Shown here in pieces: positions 2,155 through 32,293 of a stretch of DNA of 64,000 bases. Origin of the DNA: Candidatus Syntropharchaeum caldarium (GTDB taxonomy: Archaea > Halobacteriota > Syntropharchaeia > Syntropharchaeales > Syntropharchaeaceae). Both the position numbers and the translations under genes were made by a program. Within the stretch, counting starts at the first letter, position 1. Every line of letters begins with the position of its first letter. The DNA lies in the NCBI GenBank assembly GCA_001766815.1, contig LYOS01000002.1, positions 39,777 through 103,776 on the forward strand, in the 5' to 3' direction. A model generated the notes under the pieces. It did not search any database and had not been told where the DNA came from. It saw nothing but the letters and a program-made list of their open reading frames with translations.

Positions 2155-3069
2155 ATGAGCAGGAGAGGGCCACTTGAGCGTTACTTTGAGATCGTGAGAG
2201 GAAAGCGGGATGCTGCGTATCTTATGACAAAACAAACCATCATGGAGGATGGGAGAACGCTTCTTGACCATAAGCTTGCAGCAGCGGAAACAATGATGGA
2301 GAGCTGCCACCTATGTGAACGAAGGTGCAATGCAGACCGCAGGAGTGGAGAAGTTGGATACTGCGGTGTTGATGCCGTATCCAGGATTGCATCTGAGTTT
2401 CTTCATTTTGGTGAGGAGGAAGAACTTGTCCCATCCCACACGATCTTCTTTACAGGCTGCACATTCTCGTGTGTTTACTGTCAGAACTGGGATATTGCAA
2501 CATCTCCACAGTCAGGCACACCAGCCCTCCCTGAAATTGTCTGTGAGGCGATTGTGCGGCGCAATATCGAGGGTGCAAGGAATGTTAACTTTGTTGGCGG
2601 CGATCCAACACCACACATCCCAACAATACTTCGGATTCTCAACCGCTGCAATGTAAACACACCCATCATCTTCAACTCAAATATGTATCTATCAAACGAG
2701 GGGATGGAACTGCTCGATGGTATCGTTGATCTGTATCTCGGTGATTTCAGGTATGGGAATGATGCCTGTGCAAAGAAATACTCAAATGTTGATCGATACT
2801 GGGAGGTTGTAACACGAAACTTCATGTCTGCAGCCGCAGATGCCGAGGTTCTCATCAGACATCTCGTTCTCCCAGGACATCTTGACTGCTGCACCCGTCC
2901 AATAATGGAGTGGACGGCAGCAAATATGGATAGAGTACGGTTCAATCTGATGTTTCAGTACCATCCATCTTACAGGGCAAATCTCTACCCTGAGATTGAC
3001 AGGCGCCTCACACACGATGAGATGGCATATGCGACGGAGATGTATAACAGCTTACTTGCTGAACCATGA
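2155..3069 (+). CDS. radical SAM enzyme, PFL-activating-enzyme-like (possibly the AmmeMemoRadiSam-system radical SAM)
   Basis: CX3CX2C motif (GCTFSCVYCQNW) plus an upstream Cys cluster (CHLCERRCNADRRSGEVGYCG). The first ATG after the csl4 stop is 2155. The track's 1807 start is an antisense extension into csl4. Confidence 0.75.
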   Translation: MSRRGPLERYFEIVRGKRDAAYLMTKQTIMEDGRTLLDHKLAAAETMMESCHLCERRCNADRRSGEVGYCGVDAVSRIASEFLHFGEEEELVPSHTIFFTGCTFSCVYCQNWDIATSPQSGTPALPEIVCEAIVRRNIEGARNVNFVGGDPTPHIPTILRILNRCNVNTPIIFNSNMYLSNEGMELLDGIVDLYLGDFRYGNDACAKKYSNVDRYWEVVTRNFMSAAADAEVLIRHLVLPGHLDCCTRPIMEWTAANMDRVRFNLMFQYHPSYRANLYPEIDRRLTHDEMAYATEMYNSLLAEP

Positions 3070-3911
3070 GAAAAAAACCAGAAAGTGATCCGGATCTGAT
3101 CGCACAGGCAGCCCAGCTTGCGATGCTTCTTGAGGTATCTGCATCCCCAAAGGCTGGAAATGTTGATAGGTGCCACGACTACCCTGATACCAGGTATGAG
3201 GACTTTCTTGCATCCTCTGTCGCTGTATATCCTGTCTTTAGAAAAGCGGCATTAAAGGACACTGGGGTGGGAAAACTCATCTTTGAGGCGGTTGAAGCAA
3301 GTAAAAGGTGGCACACCGGCGGTAACACGCATTTTGGAGCGTTTATACTACTCATCCCACTTGTAATGGCAGGAGGGGTACAGGATCTTGCAAAAGAGAT
3401 TGTTAGAGGCACTGGGTGGCAGGATGCCATAGATTTCTACCGTGCATTCGCTATCGCAGGTGTAAGGGTTGGAAAGGTCAATGATCTCAATCTTGGTAGC
3501 CAGGAGTCTCTTGATCGAATAAGGGAGGAAAAAATTACGCTCTTTGATATATTCAAGATCTCATCATCTTACGATTCGGTATCTGCTGAGTGGATAAACG
3601 GCTTTGAACGATCATTCAAATACGCGTGGATTGTTGGCACCAATGTCCGCGAGTACGGGATGAACGACGGTATTGTCCTAACATTCATGCAACTACTTGC
3701 GGAATATCCTGATACATTCATCGCGATGAAATCTGGAAATGAAACCGCACTCGATATCTCAGCGACTGCCTCAAAACTTGCCTGTGAGTTTGATCTTGAT
3801 AAAATCAGGTCGTTCGATGAAGAACTCATTGAAAGAGGAATAAACCCTGGTGCCACGGCCGATATGATCATCGCATCCATATTTATAGCACTCATCAAGG
3901 GGTGGCTTTAG
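3066..3911 (+). CDS. triphosphoribosyl-dephospho-CoA synthase (CitG/MdcB) family protein
   Basis: 281 aa with SASPKAGNVDR and GGNTHFGAFILL motifs typical of CitG/MdcB-type ATP:dephospho-CoA triphosphoribosyl transferases. 4-nt overlap with the upstream radical SAM gene. Confidence 0.65.
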   Translation: MRKKPESDPDLIAQAAQLAMLLEVSASPKAGNVDRCHDYPDTRYEDFLASSVAVYPVFRKAALKDTGVGKLIFEAVEASKRWHTGGNTHFGAFILLIPLVMAGGVQDLAKEIVRGTGWQDAIDFYRAFAIAGVRVGKVNDLNLGSQESLDRIREEKITLFDIFKISSSYDSVSAEWINGFERSFKYAWIVGTNVREYGMNDGIVLTFMQLLAEYPDTFIAMKSGNETALDISATASKLACEFDLDKIRSFDEELIERGINPGATADMIIASIFIALIKGWL

Positions 3912-5948
3912 ATGCTGTATGATATCATCATCTGGTATCTTTTTTTCCTTTTAGCAGGGCTGATCGCGCTCCCGTTTGTTAAAGATATTGGGTATGCATC
4001 TTCAAAGGCTGTTGCCATTCTTGTTACAACTTATCTCACATTTATAACAGGTTATCTGTATTGCTATGATCTCATAACCGTTGTTACCTCTTTTCTTCTC
4101 CTTGCGACGATTGCTGCAGGATATATGATATATCGCAAGGATTTTAAGATTCAGTGGAAGGTTTTTATCGAGTTTGAACTGGTGTTTGCGGTCGCTTTTT
4201 TCATTTTCGCGCTGGTGCGTGCATTCTCCCCTGAGATCTACTTCACAGGTGGTGAGAAGCTTGGTGAGCTCGGATTTTTGAATGCGATCCTGAGATCGGG
4301 ATCCTTCCCACCGTACGATCCCTACTTTGGCGGTGAGCCGATGCAGTACTACTATTTTGGGCATCTGATCGTTGCAAACATCATAAAACTCACGGGTATA
4401 AGCCCTGAAGTAGGATTTAACCTTGCAACAGCCTCTCTTTTTGCCCTGAGTGTTCAGATTGCATACGGTCTCGGATTCAGGCTGAATATTCGTCGCGCAT
4501 ACGCTATGATAACCGTAGTCTTTCTTCTGATACTTGGAAATCTATCAGGTATCATCCAGTTTCTGCTTCAACATGCATCAGACCCATCTTCTGCCATCTA
4601 CTTCAACTACTGGTATGCATCGCGGATAATCCCGGATACGATCAATGAATTCCCGTACTTCAGCTTTCTGCATGGTGATCTGCACCCCCACATGATCGCG
4701 ATACCGTTTAAAATTATGCTCCTGACCCTCTTTCTACAACTTCTTTCTGAAAAAAAAGATAATACAGCTTTCGTAATTGCAGCTGGATTCTTCACAGGTT
4801 TTTTAGCACCACTTAACACCTGGGATTATCCTGTATTTTTATTGTTGCTTCTTATAATCCTATGGACTGGACGATACGGTCTTGATAAGATTGCTCTTTC
4901 GATATCAGCTGCCATAATCCCCTATCTACCGTTTCTCCTCTCAACCACAGGACGCGGAATCGGTTTTGTCACAGAACGAACAGAGCTTATCAACTTCTTT
5001 GTAATACATGGTTTATTTCTTTTCATACTCTTCTCATACCTCTTATTGAGGCTTGAGAGAAAATATCAGAACTATCTCATCATTATGATCCTTATTCTGC
5101 TTCCGATATCTTATCTCATACAGTTCCAGACACTATTTCTGCTACTGCCGCTCATCATCCTGCCGCTGTGGCTTCGATTCTGGGATGGTGGAGCAGATCA
5201 CGCCTTTATAGATATTCTCATTCTTGTCGGGGCTCTTATCGCGCTTGGTTGCGAACTCTTCTACGTCGATGATGCTTTCACTGGAAAAATTGAGCGCCTG
5301 AACACGGTATTCAAGCTCTACCTGAATGTATGGATCTTCTGGGCAATTGCATCTGCTTATGCACTCAGAAATATCCTCATGCAACCTGGAAGACATGGTA
5401 TGATGAGACGTATCTGGACGATCACACTTACGATACTTCTGATCTCAGCCTCGATCTATCCTGTTTTTGCAACATCGGGGAGATCTCATGCATTTGGGGT
5501 TAAACCAACGCTTGATGGCTTAGCATGGGCAAGAGATGAGTTTACATCTGATATGGATGCTCTTGATTGGATAAATAAGAACATAGATGGACATCCAGTA
5601 TTTCTAACCGTGCCTGCACAGGACTACAGGTGGGATTCGAGGGTTGCATCTGTAACAGGAGTTCCCATCATAATTGGATGGATGGGAGAGGAGATAATGT
5701 GGAGAGGGGATCGCGAAGAAGTTAACAGGAGATTGAAGGATGTATCAAAGGTGCTATCTTCAGATAAAATCGATTCTGAGGTGATAGCGATCCTTGAAGA
5801 TTACAATGTAAGTTATATCTACATAGGGGAGATTGAAAGGACGAAGTTTCCTGAGGGTGTTCTGAAGTTTGATGGCTGGAGTGGGTGCGAGGCTGTCTTT
5901 AAGAATGAGGGGGTTACAATCTTTGAGCTTCTGGATGAAAACGCTTAA
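3912..5948 (+). CDS. large polytopic membrane protein, Chlor_Arch_YYY / DUF2298 family with C-terminal extracytoplasmic domain
   Basis: 678 aa, more than 12 TM helices. Has the signature FPPYDPYFGGEPMQYYYFGH (YYY motif). Start codon abuts the CitG-like stop. Confidence 0.7.
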   Translation: MLYDIIIWYLFFLLAGLIALPFVKDIGYASSKAVAILVTTYLTFITGYLYCYDLITVVTSFLLLATIAAGYMIYRKDFKIQWKVFIEFELVFAVAFFIFALVRAFSPEIYFTGGEKLGELGFLNAILRSGSFPPYDPYFGGEPMQYYYFGHLIVANIIKLTGISPEVGFNLATASLFALSVQIAYGLGFRLNIRRAYAMITVVFLLILGNLSGIIQFLLQHASDPSSAIYFNYWYASRIIPDTINEFPYFSFLHGDLHPHMIAIPFKIMLLTLFLQLLSEKKDNTAFVIAAGFFTGFLAPLNTWDYPVFLLLLLIILWTGRYGLDKIALSISAAIIPYLPFLLSTTGRGIGFVTERTELINFFVIHGLFLFILFSYLLLRLERKYQNYLIIMILILLPISYLIQFQTLFLLLPLIILPLWLRFWDGGADHAFIDILILVGALIALGCELFYVDDAFTGKIERLNTVFKLYLNVWIFWAIASAYALRNILMQPGRHGMMRRIWTITLTILLISASIYPVFATSGRSHAFGVKPTLDGLAWARDEFTSDMDALDWINKNIDGHPVFLTVPAQDYRWDSRVASVTGVPIIIGWMGEEIMWRGDREEVNRRLKDVSKVLSSDKIDSEVIAILEDYNVSYIYIGEIERTKFPEGVLKFDGWSGCEAVFKNEGVTIFELLDENA

Positions 5949-28170: not shown

Positions 28171-28364
28171 TCAACCTCCATCGCGAGAGCACCGACAGGA
28201 CAGACATCGACACATGACCTGCAATCTGAACAGCTATCCTGATCGATCTCAAGCCACAACTCAATAAGATCGAGTGCGTTTGACGGACAGACGCCAACGC
28301 ATGTTCCACAATAGCCACATTTATATCTGTTTACAAGAATCAAAACCTCATCACCCCTGAGCAA
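28167..28364 (-). CDS. small 2x[4Fe-4S] ferredoxin co-transcribed with geranylgeranyl reductase
   Basis: CGYCGTCVGVCP and CSDCRSCVDVCP. 4-nt overlap with the GGR gene. The track start at 28388 overlaps the tRNA, so the true start is probably TTG 28364 or TTG 28343. Confidence 0.65.
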   Translation of the reverse strand: MLRGDEVLILVNRYKCGYCGTCVGVCPSNALDLIELWLEIDQDSCSDCRSCVDVCPVGALAMEVE

Positions 28365-28439
28365 TAGCGGGGGATGGATTCGAACCATCGATCTTCGGGT
28401 TATGAGCCCGACGGGATCTCCTGACTACCCCACCCCGCT
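28365..28439 (-). tRNA. initiator tRNA-Met (CAU), archaeal type
   Basis: The minus strand folds into a cloverleaf. A1:U72 acceptor start (AGCGGGG/CCCCGCU), U8, three G-C pairs closing the anticodon stem, loop CUCAUAA, T-loop UUCGAAU. No encoded CCA. Confidence 0.9.
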
Positions 28440-28530
28440 AATGTAACCTAATAACGATGGGTTAATAAAGGTTGTGGATTGTTTTCGCTGATGGCAATAT
28501 TGATTAACAGCTTCTCATATATTTAATACA

Positions 28531-29577
28531 ATGAATTCCAGAACGATTAGATTACTCACACTTCAGATCATCATCGTCTCACTTCTAATTCCAATAATAG
28601 CGGCAGCCCAGCCTGTAATTGAGATCAACTACTTCTATGGCAAAGACTGCCCACACTGCCAGGCTCTCAATCCCATAATCGATGAGATCGAAGCTGATCA
28701 TCCCAACCTGGTAATTCACCGCTATGAAGTCTATTATAATGACACAAACTACGAGATATTCGATGAGTTTCGAGATCGTTATGGGATAAAAGTCGGGGGT
28801 GTGCCGGTAATTTTCTTCAACGATACATACCTCTCAGGCGATATCACAAAAGAAGAGATTGAACGCGAGATCGCGCGGATAGAGGCAGGTGAAACGGACA
28901 AAACGCCTGAATCAAAGGTTTCAATCCCTTTTCTGATTATTTCAGGTATTGTAAATGGTCTGATCAACCTCTGCACATTCGCTGTCTTCATACTTCTTTT
29001 AACATCACTTCTCATCCTCAATGACCGGCGAAAGATAATTATAATCGGGATTACATTCATCATTGCAGTTTATCTGACCTATCTACTCGTTGGAGTCGGT
29101 CTGATAAACACATTCCTCTTTGCAGGCACAGAGCGGTATATAAGAAGTGCTGTAATCATCATAGCGCTTCTGGCAGGGGTTATAAACATAAGAGACTTTT
29201 TCACAGGCGAATCAACGCTTGCAATTCCCAAATTTGCAAAACCAGGGATCAAACGGATGATCGAGTACGCTTCACTCCCCACAGCAGGGGTGCTTGGTGT
29301 GTTTGCAACACTTGTCGGACTTCCCTGCACGGTTGGTGTCTATCTGCCAGTTCTGACTGCACTCTCTGCTGAGCCACCACTTCAGGCAATTCTCTACCTC
29401 CTGTTTTATAATATCATCTATATCTTACCATTATTTGGGATAATCGCACTCGTTTACTTTGGTACAGACCCTGAGGAACTCGATGAGATGAGAGAAAGTA
29501 AAAAAAGATATGTCAGACTCTTTGGAGGTATTGTGATACTTTCAATCGGAATATTGATGCTTATAGGGGTTATATAG
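28531..29577 (+). CDS. thiol:disulfide interchange protein: periplasm-facing DsbA-like thioredoxin domain (CPHC) fused to a CcdA/DsbD-type membrane domain
   Basis: Signal/anchor helix. Thioredoxin fold with YGKDCPHCQ. Polytopic C-terminal domain with the two conserved membrane Cys (LINLCTFAV; GLPCTVGVYLP) of the CcdA family. Confidence 0.7.
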   Translation: MNSRTIRLLTLQIIIVSLLIPIIAAAQPVIEINYFYGKDCPHCQALNPIIDEIEADHPNLVIHRYEVYYNDTNYEIFDEFRDRYGIKVGGVPVIFFNDTYLSGDITKEEIEREIARIEAGETDKTPESKVSIPFLIISGIVNGLINLCTFAVFILLLTSLLILNDRRKIIIIGITFIIAVYLTYLLVGVGLINTFLFAGTERYIRSAVIIIALLAGVINIRDFFTGESTLAIPKFAKPGIKRMIEYASLPTAGVLGVFATLVGLPCTVGVYLPVLTALSAEPPLQAILYLLFYNIIYILPLFGIIALVYFGTDPEELDEMRESKKRYVRLFGGIVILSIGILMLIGVI

Positions 29578-29850
29578 GATGGAAAAATGATCTTCGATTT
29601 TCACATGGAAACCTTTAGAAGAGAGGTTTTTGAAAGTGAAGAGATTATGGAAACTTTTGTTGCAGAAGGGGTAGTGTAATGAAGTTCCCAAAAGATGCAT
29701 AGGCGAAAGGTCATAAAAATGGGACTAAAACTCCTTTAACCATGCCTAACCATGATAGGATAAAAGGTTCGAGACTGAGAGTTATTTGCAGGCAATCAGG
29801 TATAAAGTGGGAGGAGTTTTTAAAAGCTTATGAAGAAACATGAGCAACTT

Positions 29851-29970
29851 CGCATAACAGCGTGTATCTGGCTCCGTGCCTTAGGCACTCCGCTCAAATT
29901 CCACCTGCGGGAACTTCGGATACACTCGGAACGTTATATGAAATTGAAAAGGGGGCTTTGGCTTTTTTAG
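29851..29970. repeat. copy A of a short non-coding repeat family (about 95-120 nt)
   Basis: cgcataacagcgtgtatctggct...gtgccttaggcac hairpin...caaattccacctgcgggaacttcggatac...cgttatatgaaatt, followed by ggctttggcttttttag. Shares its 5' and 3' ends with copy B and an internal block with copy C. Confidence 0.5.
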
Positions 29971-30045
29971 TGGTTGATGTTTGGCTTATTGCTTATAGCA
30001 AGTATTTTATAGCAATTGCTACACAATGTATAGCAGGCGATATAG

Positions 30046-30345
30046 ATGACAACACAGATAAATGTCAAGTTAGAAGAACAGTTGCTTAGAGAAGTTGATG
30101 CTTTAACTAAAGTATTGCACATTTCCCGAAGCGAATGGCTCAGGAATAAAATCGCGTACGCTGTGAAAGAAGAAGCACTTCATCTTAGAGAAGCTATTGT
30201 GATGGAATATGCAAGAGGGCATATCACTGAGGAAGAACTTGAGGAGTTGTTAGGTGCTGATGCAGAGGATGTTGAATATATTTTAAGGAAGGTCCAGGAG
30301 GGGAAGGGCAGGGTTGATGAGATGTTGAAGAAGTGTAACATATGA
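30046..30345 (+). CDS. ribbon-helix-helix (CopG/VapB-like) antitoxin
   Basis: N-terminal RHH signature (INVKLEEQLLREVDALTKVLHISRSEWLRNKI). 99 aa. Overlaps the downstream PIN gene by 4 nt. Confidence 0.6.
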   Translation: MTTQINVKLEEQLLREVDALTKVLHISRSEWLRNKIAYAVKEEALHLREAIVMEYARGHITEEELEELLGADAEDVEYILRKVQEGKGRVDEMLKKCNI

Positions 30346-30809
30346 AGGTGACCTTTGGATTCGATACATCTGCTTTGGTATCATTAGGACATACAGGTTT
30401 AGTAGAGGAGATAGTTAATACATGTAACATCGTTGTCACGGAAAGTATCTTGGATGAATTATACGACATAGGGAATTGGGGTGACCTAGATGCTAAATCA
30501 GCCAAAATGTGGTTAAAATGCTTAGGAGATTTAGATGTAAGATATTCTGAAAGACGAGAAAACGCAGAAGACGAGTTATTTATCATTTGCAACCAGGAAG
30601 GTATACCTATAGTGATTGATGACATTAAAGCATTTAAGAGGTTTGATGGCCTGATTGAGTGCTTATTCAGCGTTCATATAGTGTATTTCTTATACAAGAG
30701 CAACAAGATTACTCGGGAGAGTGCCTTGCTTTCTATTGAAAAGATGAGGGTAGAAAGAGATTGGAAAAGAAACATAATAGCGCTTACTGGGTGGATACTC
30801 TTTGAGTAA
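30342..30809 (+). CDS. PIN-domain (VapC-like) toxin
   Basis: FGFDTSALV N-terminal Asp motif, further acidic residues (ESILDEL, DDIKAF). 155 aa. Translationally coupled to the RHH gene. Confidence 0.55.
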   Translation: MKVTFGFDTSALVSLGHTGLVEEIVNTCNIVVTESILDELYDIGNWGDLDAKSAKMWLKCLGDLDVRYSERRENAEDELFIICNQEGIPIVIDDIKAFKRFDGLIECLFSVHIVYFLYKSNKITRESALLSIEKMRVERDWKRNIIALTGWILFE

Positions 30810-30810
30810 T

Positions 30811-30945
30811 CATAACCCGCTCAAGCCAAAGCCATTTCCCCTTTCAACTCTGCGGAAACCTTCGGTTTCCTCGCCTTCGCTACGCTACGCCCAAATTGCC
30901 CTCGGGAACTTCTTTTATCCGCAATCCGTTATGCGCCATCGGCTT
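30811..30945. repeat. copy C (diverged) of the short repeat family
   Basis: cataacccgctcaagccaaagcc... (contains the reverse complement of ggctttggctt) ...cccaaattgccctcgggaacttc...ccgttatgcg. Compare with the copy A block caaattccacctgcgggaacttcgga. Confidence 0.4.
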
Positions 30946-31001
30946 TAGAGGCCCAAGGCAAAAGTATTTTTATGTTGGGTAATCAAAGAGGTGATTGAGA
31001 G

Positions 31002-31370
31002 ATGTCGAATATCATCGAGTGGTATATAGCGGTCATAGTTGCTTTTCCTACCATCCTCATGCTTGCAGATGCGTATATTGGGTATAAAAAGGGTGGAAGT
31101 GCCCTTAAGGGAATATCCGGTTTTCGCAGAGCCATCATAGCTCTTACTGTAATTTTAATCCTTGGCATAGCCGTCTTTCACCTACTTGTCAATGATACTG
31201 ATTCTAACTCCAGAGCAGTGGTCAACAACATTCTGAGCATGCTTGCAGGACTCGTTTCTGCCATCGCTGGATTTTACTTCGGAGGTAGATTTACAGAAAA
31301 GAGAGCTGAAGATGCGGAGAGAAGGGCGAAAGGGGTTGAAGAAAGAGCAAGGAAAGCTGAGGAAGAGTAG
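31002..31370 (+). CDS. hypothetical membrane protein with charged C-terminal tail
   Basis: Three predicted TM helices and a C-terminal KRAEDAERRAKGVEERARKAEEE tail. No known motif. Confidence 0.4.
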   Translation: MSNIIEWYIAVIVAFPTILMLADAYIGYKKGGSALKGISGFRRAIIALTVILILGIAVFHLLVNDTDSNSRAVVNNILSMLAGLVSAIAGFYFGGRFTEKRAEDAERRAKGVEERARKAEEE

Positions 31371-31384
31371 AAATGTTTCGTTGA

Positions 31385-31452
31385 CGCGTATAACAGCGTC
31401 TATCTGGCTTTGGCTTACGCTTTCGGATACCCCGCCGCCCGTTATATGAAAT
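31385..31452. repeat. copy B of the short repeat family
   Basis: cgcgtataacagcgtctatctggctttggcttacgctttcggatac...cccgttatatgaaatgcg. Its ends match copy A (ataacagcgtNtatctggct ... cgttatatgaaat). Confidence 0.5.
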
Positions 31453-31491
31453 GCGAACGAGCCAAATGAAATGTTATTAAAGGTTTAAATC

Positions 31492-31683
31492 ATGAATATG
31501 AGAAAAAGTGAAATAATCGTCCTGGGGATAATTCTTTTCTCCTTCATCGTTGGTATTTATTTTTATCCTCAGATGCCAGAGCAGATGGCATCGCACTGGA
31601 ATGCTCAGGGACAGATGGATGGATATATGTCAAAATTCTGGGGATTGTTCCTGATGCCGCTGATCTCTGTGGCACTATTTTAA
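31492..31683 (+). pseudogene. truncated N-terminal fragment of a DUF1648/SdpI-like membrane protein
   Basis: 63-aa ORF (…IYFYPQMPEQMASHWNAQGQMDGYMSKFWGLF…) matches only the first roughly 60 residues of DUF1648-type proteins, which are normally about 150–200 aa. A stop follows, then the next gene. Confidence 0.4.
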
Positions 31684-31741
31684 TATCGTACTACCAAGAC
31701 TTAAATCTATCCTGAATTAACTAATTCCTCAGGAGAGAAGG

Positions 31742-32293
31742 ATGATTGCTGTTGTGATGGCAGGCGGTAAAGCTACAAGGCTTGGATGTGTGGAAAAACC
31801 AATGGTTAAGCTTGGAGGCATTCCACTTATAGACCATGTCATGCGCCCGCTCATTGAACTGGATATTGAGACCATTGTTGCTGTATCGAAGAATACACAG
31901 GATACGACCGTCTACTGTCAGCGATCAAATTATGAGGTCGTGATGACATCGGGAAATGATTACCACGAGGATCTATTCCATCTCACAGAACAGTTCGGTG
32001 CGATCCTTACGATTGTATCAGATATCCCTTTCCTGACTCCTGCTCACATCAAGGCGATTTTAAAGGCAGATCGAATGAGAGATTCTGTTGTTGGATGCAC
32101 GATGGTGCATGATGTGATCACGCCTTTTGGACTCAACATCGTTGATGGAACCACGGATCGCTATCTGCTTTTTGATGATTATTATGTCGGTATCAATATC
32201 AACTCACAGGAAGATCTTGATCTTGCAGAAAAGATTTCTGGAGAGGTAGATTACAACCGCACGGTTGGATCAAAGCTTCTTGAGAAGATTTAA
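31742..32293 (+). CDS. NTP-transferase domain protein (CobY/MobA-like nucleotidyltransferase)
   Basis: MIAVVMAGGKATRLG...EKP N-terminal nucleotidyltransferase motif. 183 aa, the size of archaeal CobY. Confidence 0.55.
   Translation: MIAVVMAGGKATRLGCVEKPMVKLGGIPLIDHVMRPLIELDIETIVAVSKNTQDTTVYCQRSNYEVVMTSGNDYHEDLFHLTEQFGAILTIVSDIPFLTPAHIKAILKADRMRDSVVGCTMVHDVITPFGLNIVDGTTDRYLLFDDYYVGININSQEDLDLAEKISGEVDYNRTVGSKLLEKI

Follow-up and report, generated by a model that had tools for sequence, protein, structure and literature searches.

Sites A, B, and C are three copies of a short structured element in the archaeon Candidatus Syntropharchaeum caldarium, located on contig LYOS01000002.1, where two housekeeping genes enclose an insert of low GC content. 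The window analyzed here is the whole 64,000-nucleotide (64-kb) stretch of this contig, and all positions refer to it. The three copies belong to a family of sites found in bacteria, where the sites are part of cassette arrays, the arrays are linked to a tyrosine recombinase, and the structure of the sites covaries in the way expected of DNA rather than RNA. We consider it likely that A, B, and C are integron-like cassette sites, and that the region from 29.57 to 31.74 kb is a decayed, integrase-less array of a non-canonical family. A bolder proposal, which we regard as a serious possibility short of a probable one, is that this array is the first archaeal footprint of an integron-like class, of which we found no description, that is abundant in Patescibacteria and combines a XerA-like recombinase lacking the I2 helix with sites whose asymmetry is the mirror image of that of attC.

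Sites A, B, and C belong to a family of bacterial sites

The initial annotation of this region had reported that A and B share their ends, which was borne out. The 23-nt 5' end of A, CGCATAACAGCGTGTATCTGGCT (29851-29873), recurs at 31387-31409 with 2 mismatches, the 13-nt 3' end CGTTATATGAAAT is identical in both (29932-29944 and 31440-31452), and the reported ttcggatac is found in each. No match to the 23-nt 5' end was obtained in any of 100 dinucleotide shuffles. As had also been noted, the segments ATAAC/GTTAT and GTGTATC/GATACAC of A are able to pair, A contains a perfect gtgcc-tta-ggcac hairpin (29876-29888), A and C have CAAATT...GGGAACTTC in common, and the reverse complement of ggctttggctt lies near C, within 30823-30834. 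The extents needed adjustment: copy A is real, but ends at about 29946 rather than 29970, and the block shared by C was found as described, but C as a whole (core at 30836-30941) shares its strand with A and B.

The exact 21-mer of A and B, GYATAACAGCGTNTATCTGGC, was found on 14 contigs in a search that covered one genome per species, in a collection from which the source region is probably absent or masked. By record title, all 14 are from bacterial metagenome-assembled genomes (MAGs): eight Patescibacteria (candidate phyla radiation, CPR), four Gammaproteobacteria, one Pelolinea, and one unclassified. The labels of the four Gammaproteobacteria MAGs may reflect a binning error. Plasmid collections, phage collections, and viral contigs gave no match.

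The bacterial sites are 90-210 nt long and share a common anatomy, which runs 5'-(T/A)ACAnCnY-ATAAC-A-(11-nt L'' with central TAT)-GYTnCGG-(hairpin 1)-CCTCCRCCCAWATTT-(hairpin 2), followed by AAACWTC-(L')-(4-5 nt ending in C)-GTTAT-nn-GAAAT. The outer stem ATAAC/GTTAT and the 3' flank GAAAT are conserved, and an asymmetric internal loop of 1x4-5 nt lies beside the outer stem. The second (L) stem of 11-12 bp covaries freely: L stems are perfectly paired yet different in each site (GCGTGTATCTG, CTGCGTATGCG, CGGGATAAGCG, GAGACTATGAG, CGGCATATCTG). The two inner hairpins flank a conserved CCGCCCAAATT motif.

Two covariance models were built from this family, neither of which included any sequence of the window: R1 from 12 bacterial sites, and R2 from 64 further sites beside recombinases in metagenomes. 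Over the entire 64 kb, A and B were the sole matches of R1. When 5 kb were searched with filters off, the third-best match of both R1 and R2 was C, which lies on the + strand like A and B (scores in Table 1). No further copies were detected in the window by sequence or model scans. Each of the three sites begins 1-27 nt past the stop codon of a + strand open reading frame (ORF), and their lengths differ, from 72 to 106 nt.

Site A is intact and contains every module of the bacterial anatomy. Its 5' half consists of R'' ATAAC (29854-58), L'' (29860-70), hairpin 1 (29876-88), and CTCCGCTCAAATT (29888-29900), and its 3' half of L' (29917-27), the spacer GGAAC (29928-32), R' GTTAT (29933-37), and the flank ATGAAAT. 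The L stem has 9 Watson-Crick pairs and 1 G·T among 11 positions, and the 5' arm and 3' flank are near-identical to those of sites in Pelolinea and Uhrbacteria MAGs. Site B keeps both ends (R'' ATAAC at 31390-94, R' GTTAT at 31441-45), but a deletion has removed its center, hairpins 1 and 2 included. Part of its L stem is lost as well, so that the stem is interrupted (GCG/CGC + TATCTG/CGGATA). Site C has the center (CGCTACGCTACGCCCAAATT-hairpin-AACTTC) and 3' end (ATCC-GTTATGCGCCAT) typical of the family, and its R and L stems are largely gone. Its 3' end GTTATGCGCCAT matches GTTATACGCCAT, found in bacterial sites and integrase-proximal junctions, at 11/12 positions. Directly before C lies an orphan piece resembling a 5' arm (Table 1), whose CATAAC pairs with GTTATG at 30928-33 and which has no L partner. 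It is complementary to the center of B (inverted repeat I16, 12/12), and is probably the remnant of another site.

The ATAAC of B can alternatively pair with a second GTTAT at 31473-31477 (region 31390-31477). In this pairing, TCTATCTGGCT faces AGCCAAATGAA with a score of 9 of 11 (8 Watson-Crick + 2 G·T), and the larger side of the loop falls on the opposite arm. The sequence ATGAAATG occurs as a direct repeat at 31446 and 31466. The alternative pairing or the direct repeat may be a remnant of a further site.

In bacteria, the sites form cassette arrays next to a tyrosine recombinase

At each bacterial locus, all site matches lie on one strand, 0.3-2 kb apart. Wherever an inter-site interval contains an ORF of 50 aa or more (25/25), the ORF lies on the strand of the sites and fills most of the interval. 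The unit of the bacterial arrays is one short ORF followed by one site, repeated head-to-tail. At 4 of the 14 loci, a tyrosine recombinase of ~270 aa is encoded within some hundreds of bases of the first site, in divergent orientation. Two loci (L003, L008) carry a GTTATACGCCAT junction without a 5' arm at ~170 nt from the recombinase start, which has the appearance expected of an attI-like junction.

The linkage was also seen from the side of the recombinase. We scanned 80 metagenome loci, picked by recombinase similarity alone (48-79% identity), with R1, and obtained 108 matches at E <= 0.01. All 108 were located upstream of the recombinase and on the opposite strand, within 221 kb of searched upstream sequence; none was found in 328 kb downstream. 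Of the 31 loci whose upstream sequence exceeded 2.5 kb, 26 had at least one site and 20 had two or more. The site nearest to the recombinase start codon lay at a distance of 146-1582 nt (median 704). The bacterial loci show the architecture of an integron, in that a co-oriented array of mostly single-ORF cassettes stands beside a recombinase.

Some loci had additional features. In L013, from a Gracilibacteria MAG, an ORF-less unit of ~190 nt occurs four times between cassettes with 85-100% identity (408-692, 1584-1957, 2828-3189, and 4641-4840). It starts with TTAGCCAACATCGCTACGC, ends with TCTAACAGCGATTATCC...GTTAT, and looks like a repeated empty cassette with a short site of its own. A long variant of the site (~195-210 nt) is near-identical in MAGs assigned to different Patescibacteria phyla (L003, L007, L008, L010-L013), and in two of these loci (L003, L008) it forms the first full site past the recombinase and one cassette. 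This suggests that the variant spread recently or serves a special role. At L002 (3400-5100), in a MAG labelled Gammaproteobacteria, a long ORF that appears transposase-like by eye lies between recombinase and array.

The array-adjacent recombinases pass the NCBIfam model of archaeal XerA, NF040815, with 229-240 bits (cut-off 220), and fail the integron-integrase model TIGR02249 with 212-224 bits (cut-off 265). Their best match in the Protein Data Bank is XerA of Pyrococcus (4a8e, E 5e-48). Alignment to VchIntIA (2a3v) falls into two blocks, between which 14 residues take the place of IntI residues 185-241. The family comprises 2619 proteins at E <= 1e-40, of ~273 aa and mostly from Patescibacteria, which NCBI labels "site-specific tyrosine recombinase/integron integrase"; all 80 relatives fetched here were ~270 aa long.

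Covariation is of the DNA type

In the 12 seed sites, 87% of cells are paired, vs 67% when shuffled and 26-42% when partners are slid; in 63 distinct further sites, these values are 89.9%, 67.9%, and 32-45%, both percentages paired being inflated by the choice of seeds (A4) partly on L-stem pairing and by the fitting of the second alignment (A5) to the model. Hairpin 2 played no part in the choice of the seed sites, and in these 12 sites all six of its pairs show changes on both sides, as do 9/12 L-stem pairs. Among the 63 sites, 21/27 pairs were doubly changed, with 392 doubly changed cells. The L stem, which supplies a second inverted repeat, was 95% paired with 10/12 pairs doubly changed, and AAC/GTT was paired in 60-63 of the 63 sites. 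The compensatory base changes that the initial annotation had proposed to look for are present in the stems of the wider family.

Of the cells in the covarying helices, 1082 are Watson-Crick, 22 are G·T, and 26 are A·C. This places G·U at 1.9%, a rarity unlike known RNA families. As there is neither a surplus of G·U nor a strand bias, pairing appears to take place at the level of DNA rather than RNA; which strand folds is left unspecified by covariation of this type. A single G·T atop the L stem is conserved in 59/63 sites. Single-sequence folds were uninformative, with Z-scores of -1.1 to +1.0 over the two strands of A, B, and C.

Comparison with integrons

Integrons are the main known device by which genes are captured and shuffled. 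The family resembles attC arrays and clusters of attC sites lacking an integrase (CALINs) in several respects: short, co-oriented ORFs are each followed by an imperfect palindrome of 60-200 nt; an invariant AAC...GTT core is accompanied by a second covarying inverted repeat; the arrays diverge from a tyrosine recombinase; the cargo is rich in toxin-antitoxin systems and membrane proteins; and integrase-less clusters are common. Archaeal integrons and CALINs have been described in 75 MAGs, mostly as CALINs and frequently with toxin-antitoxin cargo (Ghaly et al. 2022, PMC9668308). Toxin-antitoxin pairs and membrane proteins are typical integron cargo, in Archaea too (PMC9668308), and are found between the sites of the window, which supports the interpretation of A, B, and C as integron-type cassette sites. 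A CALIN has at least 2 attC sites less than 4 kb apart and no integrase nearby. The window cluster agrees in spacing and in lacking an integrase; however, its sites are not canonical attC, and only A and B are significant window-wide. The survey of archaeal integrons used IntegronFinder, and its supplementary tables do not list S. caldarius as carrying an integron, which is weak indirect evidence on whether the window sites would pass the attC model of that program. In the literature searched, we found no description of integron-like arrays in Patescibacteria or of integron integrases without the I2 helix, although one may exist elsewhere.

The R boxes of the window sites are GCATAAC...GTTATAT in A and GTATAAC...GTTATAT in B, and C ends in GTTATGC. 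They agree with RYYYAAC/GTTRRRY, although one position in each 7-mer is off the R/Y code; a functional archaeal attC from a Hydrothermarchaeota MAG, GCATAAC...GTTATGT, departs from it likewise (PMC9668308, Data S9). The R boxes GCATAAC/GTTATAT lie in the range seen in experimentally active archaeal attCs (PMC9668308).

Integron attC sites are defined by an unpaired central spacer, extrahelical bases, and a variable terminal structure (PMC8946536). The family deviates in the last of these, as its center holds conserved motifs and two hairpins rather than a free terminal structure, and unlike in attC, ~10 further flanking bases are conserved. In constrained DNA folds, which are noisy for individual sites, nine canonical archaeal attCs had spacers of 5x5 to 7x7 where these could be resolved, and 7/9 carried a surplus of 1-2 nt on the 5' arm, whereas family sites and A had loops of 1x4 to 2x4, stems of 11-13 bp, and a surplus of 3-6 nt on the 3' arm.

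By analogy with integrons, a mechanism can be proposed in which one DNA strand folds as attC sites do, its outer and inner stems are bound by subunits of the recombinase, and cleavage takes place within the AAC/GTT core. Recombination between two sites would excise a cassette as a circle, and recombination between a site and an attachment site would insert it. A crossover between the G and TT of the 3' core would set the borders of three cassettes, consisting of the hicA pseudogene and site A (29570-29933), the RHH/PIN toxin-antitoxin pair and site C (29934-30928), and the membrane protein and site B (30929-31441), with a DUF1648 remnant without a site ending the array. With A as its one intact site and no recombinase in the 64 kb, the array is most likely immobile now. 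Folding of a single strand in vivo, the position of cleavage, insertion at a GTTATAT motif (Table 1), and present immobility are what we infer.

Points against an integron-like array and alternative explanations

Several observations weigh against an integron-like array. Besides the inflated pairing percentages, the sites differ from canonical attC in their spacer (1x4-5 nt vs ~5x5-6), in their L stem, which is a perfect helix of 11-13 bp without extrahelical bases, and in the surplus bases, which the family carries on the 3' arm of the coding strand and attC on the 5' arm. An integron-like site also offers no explanation for the conserved center CCGCCCAAATT. In the window, A alone matches strongly; B is weak, and C is marginal, with E values of 0.03-0.05 even in 5 kb. 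A tblastn search of the 64 kb gave no recombinase homolog, and no other archaeal example was present in the loci examined from relatives or PIN homologs: with filters off, 0 family sites were found at the loci of DsbD-like orthologs (L021, L023, L024) and at the RHH/PIN loci of other archaea (L025-L027). The array-adjacent recombinases lack the IntI-specific insertion (I2 helix region), and PMC7790495 presents the I2 helix as the innovation behind the shift of IntI from double-strand to single-strand recombination. A recombinase without I2 and sites without extrahelical bases are internally consistent, and we infer a link between the two.

The same recombinase-linked cassettes could be moved with the sites acting as duplex DNA, similar to Xer/dif and the pdif modules, in which case crossover would take place in the conserved ATAAC or AACGTTAT, and the hairpins would serve for termination or protein binding. 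The recombinase, above the cut-off of the XerA model and without the IntI insertion, fits this scenario, as does the role ascribed to the I2 helix in PMC7790495; moreover, the ends of the sites are conserved in sequence and not just in structure. They also resemble the arms of E. coli dif (GCGCATAA / TTATGTTAAAT), which is a lead and not a test. Like the family cassettes, the pdif modules of Acinetobacter are small, often carry toxin-antitoxin systems, and are bounded by recombinase sites. However, a stem of 11-12 bp that changes freely and is 95% paired is hard to explain for duplex sites, as is a fixed 1x4 asymmetric loop beside the AAC/GTT core. In addition, pdif sites alternate in orientation, whereas the family sites are all direct. 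A replicon has just one dif, a duplex site of 28 bp, rather than a covarying hairpin of 100-200 nt after every gene, and cassette arrays do not flank Xer genes. We consider duplex sites unlikely. Slightly less likely still are structured RNAs co-transcribed with the upstream gene, such as stabilizers in the 3' untranslated region, terminators, processing sites, or the small regulatory RNAs that the initial annotation had offered as one option. The sites always lie on the sense strand directly past stop codons, their secondary structure is conserved and covaries, and the G·T atop the L stem is retained. Nevertheless, at Rfam gathering thresholds only tRNA was detected in the window and 10 bacterial loci, and at E <= 10, nothing credible was found in 29500-31800 (Rfam holds no attC family). 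Covariation is nearly purely Watson-Crick, with G·U not above A·C, linkage to a divergent tyrosine recombinase is exclusive, and the structure is lost in two of the three window copies.

The other option of the initial annotation, miniature inverted-repeat transposable elements (MITEs), can be considered together with repetitive extragenic palindromes (REPs), bacterial interspersed mosaic elements (BIMEs), and other selfish non-autonomous repeats that would have inserted independently, and with chance similarity. The sites are short, intergenic, palindromic, and repeated, with terminal inverted repeats ATAAC/GTTAT and three copies in 1.6 kb. Against this, the borders of A and B show no target-site duplication, the copies are not scattered over the 64 kb, and their lengths vary. 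In the family, the stems change by compensation instead of random drift, and the sites are strictly co-linear with genes and form recombinase-tied arrays in bacteria. Chance similarity of A and B is excluded by the shuffles (0/100) and by the R1 match at E 1e-14. Explanations of this kind appear very improbable, and integron-like cassette sites remain our preferred interpretation.

Implications

If folded-strand recombination takes place at these sites, the I2 helix would be no prerequisite for hairpin recombination, the system would represent a proto-integron or an independent invention, and cassettes of this class would be common to Bacteria and Archaea. A large family of arrays with an integrase lacking I2 and with hairpins of a different build would make the origin of hairpin recombination, and its need for I2, directly testable. 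Standard integron finders need the IntI-specific domain and possibly also the canonical attC model, so that a large pool of mobile cassettes in bacteria of the candidate phyla may escape them. The cluster described here places cassette-type DNA, with a type of site otherwise bacterial, in a butane oxidizer of a cultured consortium, and is a concrete trace of gene traffic across domains. Either an archaeal platform of this class has so far not been sampled, or archaeal genes were moved by a system of the bacterial type.

The insert and its neighboring genes

The insert spans 29578-31741 (~2.2 kb) and has a GC content of 41.1%, compared to 46.6% and 46.9% in its two 20-kb flanks. All of its ORFs lie on the + strand (Table 1). 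No insert is present 3' of the DsbD-like orthologs of three relatives (86%, 77%, and 66% identity), where unrelated DNA is found. The low GC content and this absence suggest that the insert is foreign in origin. Taken with its pseudogenized or short genes, they show the earlier description as a decayed integrated element to be right in spirit.

Table 1. Features of the insert and its surroundings, in order of position
Feature	Position	Strand	Remarks
tRNA-Met(CAT)	28364-28440	-	upstream of DsbD-like gene
DsbD-like gene	28531-29577	+	348 aa; left neighbor of insert
GTTATAT, putative left array junction	29569..29575	+	last DsbD-like codons; equals 3' core of sites A and B
30-codon ORF, cassette 1	29588-29680	+	from translation
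hicA pseudogene, in-frame stop, cassette 1	29680-29844	+	directly before site A
Site A, intact	29846..29946	+	R1 69.6 bits, E 1.1e-14; R2 71 bits, E 6.7e-14
RHH (CopG-like) antitoxin gene, cassette 2	30046..30345	+	Pfam RHH_1, E 8.2e-5
PIN-like toxin gene (DUF3368 / PIN_9 type), cassette 2	30342..30809	+	from domains of homologs
Orphan 5'-arm-like piece, TCATAAC-C-CGCTCAAGCCAAAGCCA	30810..30834	+	directly 3' of PIN stop codon
Site C, degenerate	30836..30941	+	R1 13.9 bits, E 0.027; R2 14.1 bits, E 0.05 (5 kb)
Predicted membrane protein, 122 aa, cassette 3	31002..31370	+	from ORF list
Site B	31382..31454	+	R1 21.7 bits, E 0.012; R2 24.6 bits, E 0.0025 (whole window)
63-aa ORF, DUF1648 domain only	31492..31683	+	Pfam DUF1648, E 3.7e-22
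MobA/CobY-like gene	31742-32293		right neighbor of insert

At the left end, the DsbD-like gene, whose protein is 100% identical to an NCBI entry from S. caldarius, has GTTATAT in its last codons. As the orthologs in relatives likewise terminate in GGGGTTATATAG, GGAGTTATATAA, or GGGGTTGTATAG, the motif is native to this gene, and it may plausibly have served as the insertion point. The left junction was confirmed in independent metagenome assemblies. The tRNA-Met(CAT) that the initial annotation had placed upstream is present, and it plays no part in the element. A tRNA-linked island was rejected: a conserved DsbD-like gene lies in between, no tRNA duplication was found, every 18-mer of the tRNA being unique within the window, and the window contains no integrase.

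Cassette 1 holds a hicA pseudogene, which the initial annotation did not mention. Its translation reads MKFPKDA*AKGHKNGTKTPLTMPNHDRIKGSRLRVICRQSGIKWEEFLKAYEET, and its C-terminal part has a weak match to the Pfam family HicA_toxin (E 0.0056, under the Pfam cut-off). The RHH–PIN module of cassette 2 had been recognized before, in agreement with our results: the PIN-like toxin itself has no significant Pfam match, and its homologs with 50-56% identity carry PF11848 or PF18477. These closest homologs of the RHH/PIN pair are present in other archaea. The pair is the only content of the insert that looks functional. The membrane protein of cassette 3 has no significant Pfam match.

The ORF at the right end had been described as a truncated DUF1648 gene, and its 63 aa do consist of this domain only. 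No site lies 3' of it, and it is probably the truncated remnant of the last cassette before the MobA/CobY-like gene. Independent assemblies (L015, L017-L020) break or diverge within this ORF, at 31643-31690 of the window, and L015 has a variant DUF1648 sequence. This suggests that DUF1648 at the right end of the array is a multi-copy gene or subject to strain variation.

Lastly, the motif GGCTTTGGCTT occurs three times: just past site A (29954-29964, +), inverted in the orphan arm before C (30823-30834, -), and in the center of B (31405-31416, +). These occurrences may record rearrangements between sites.

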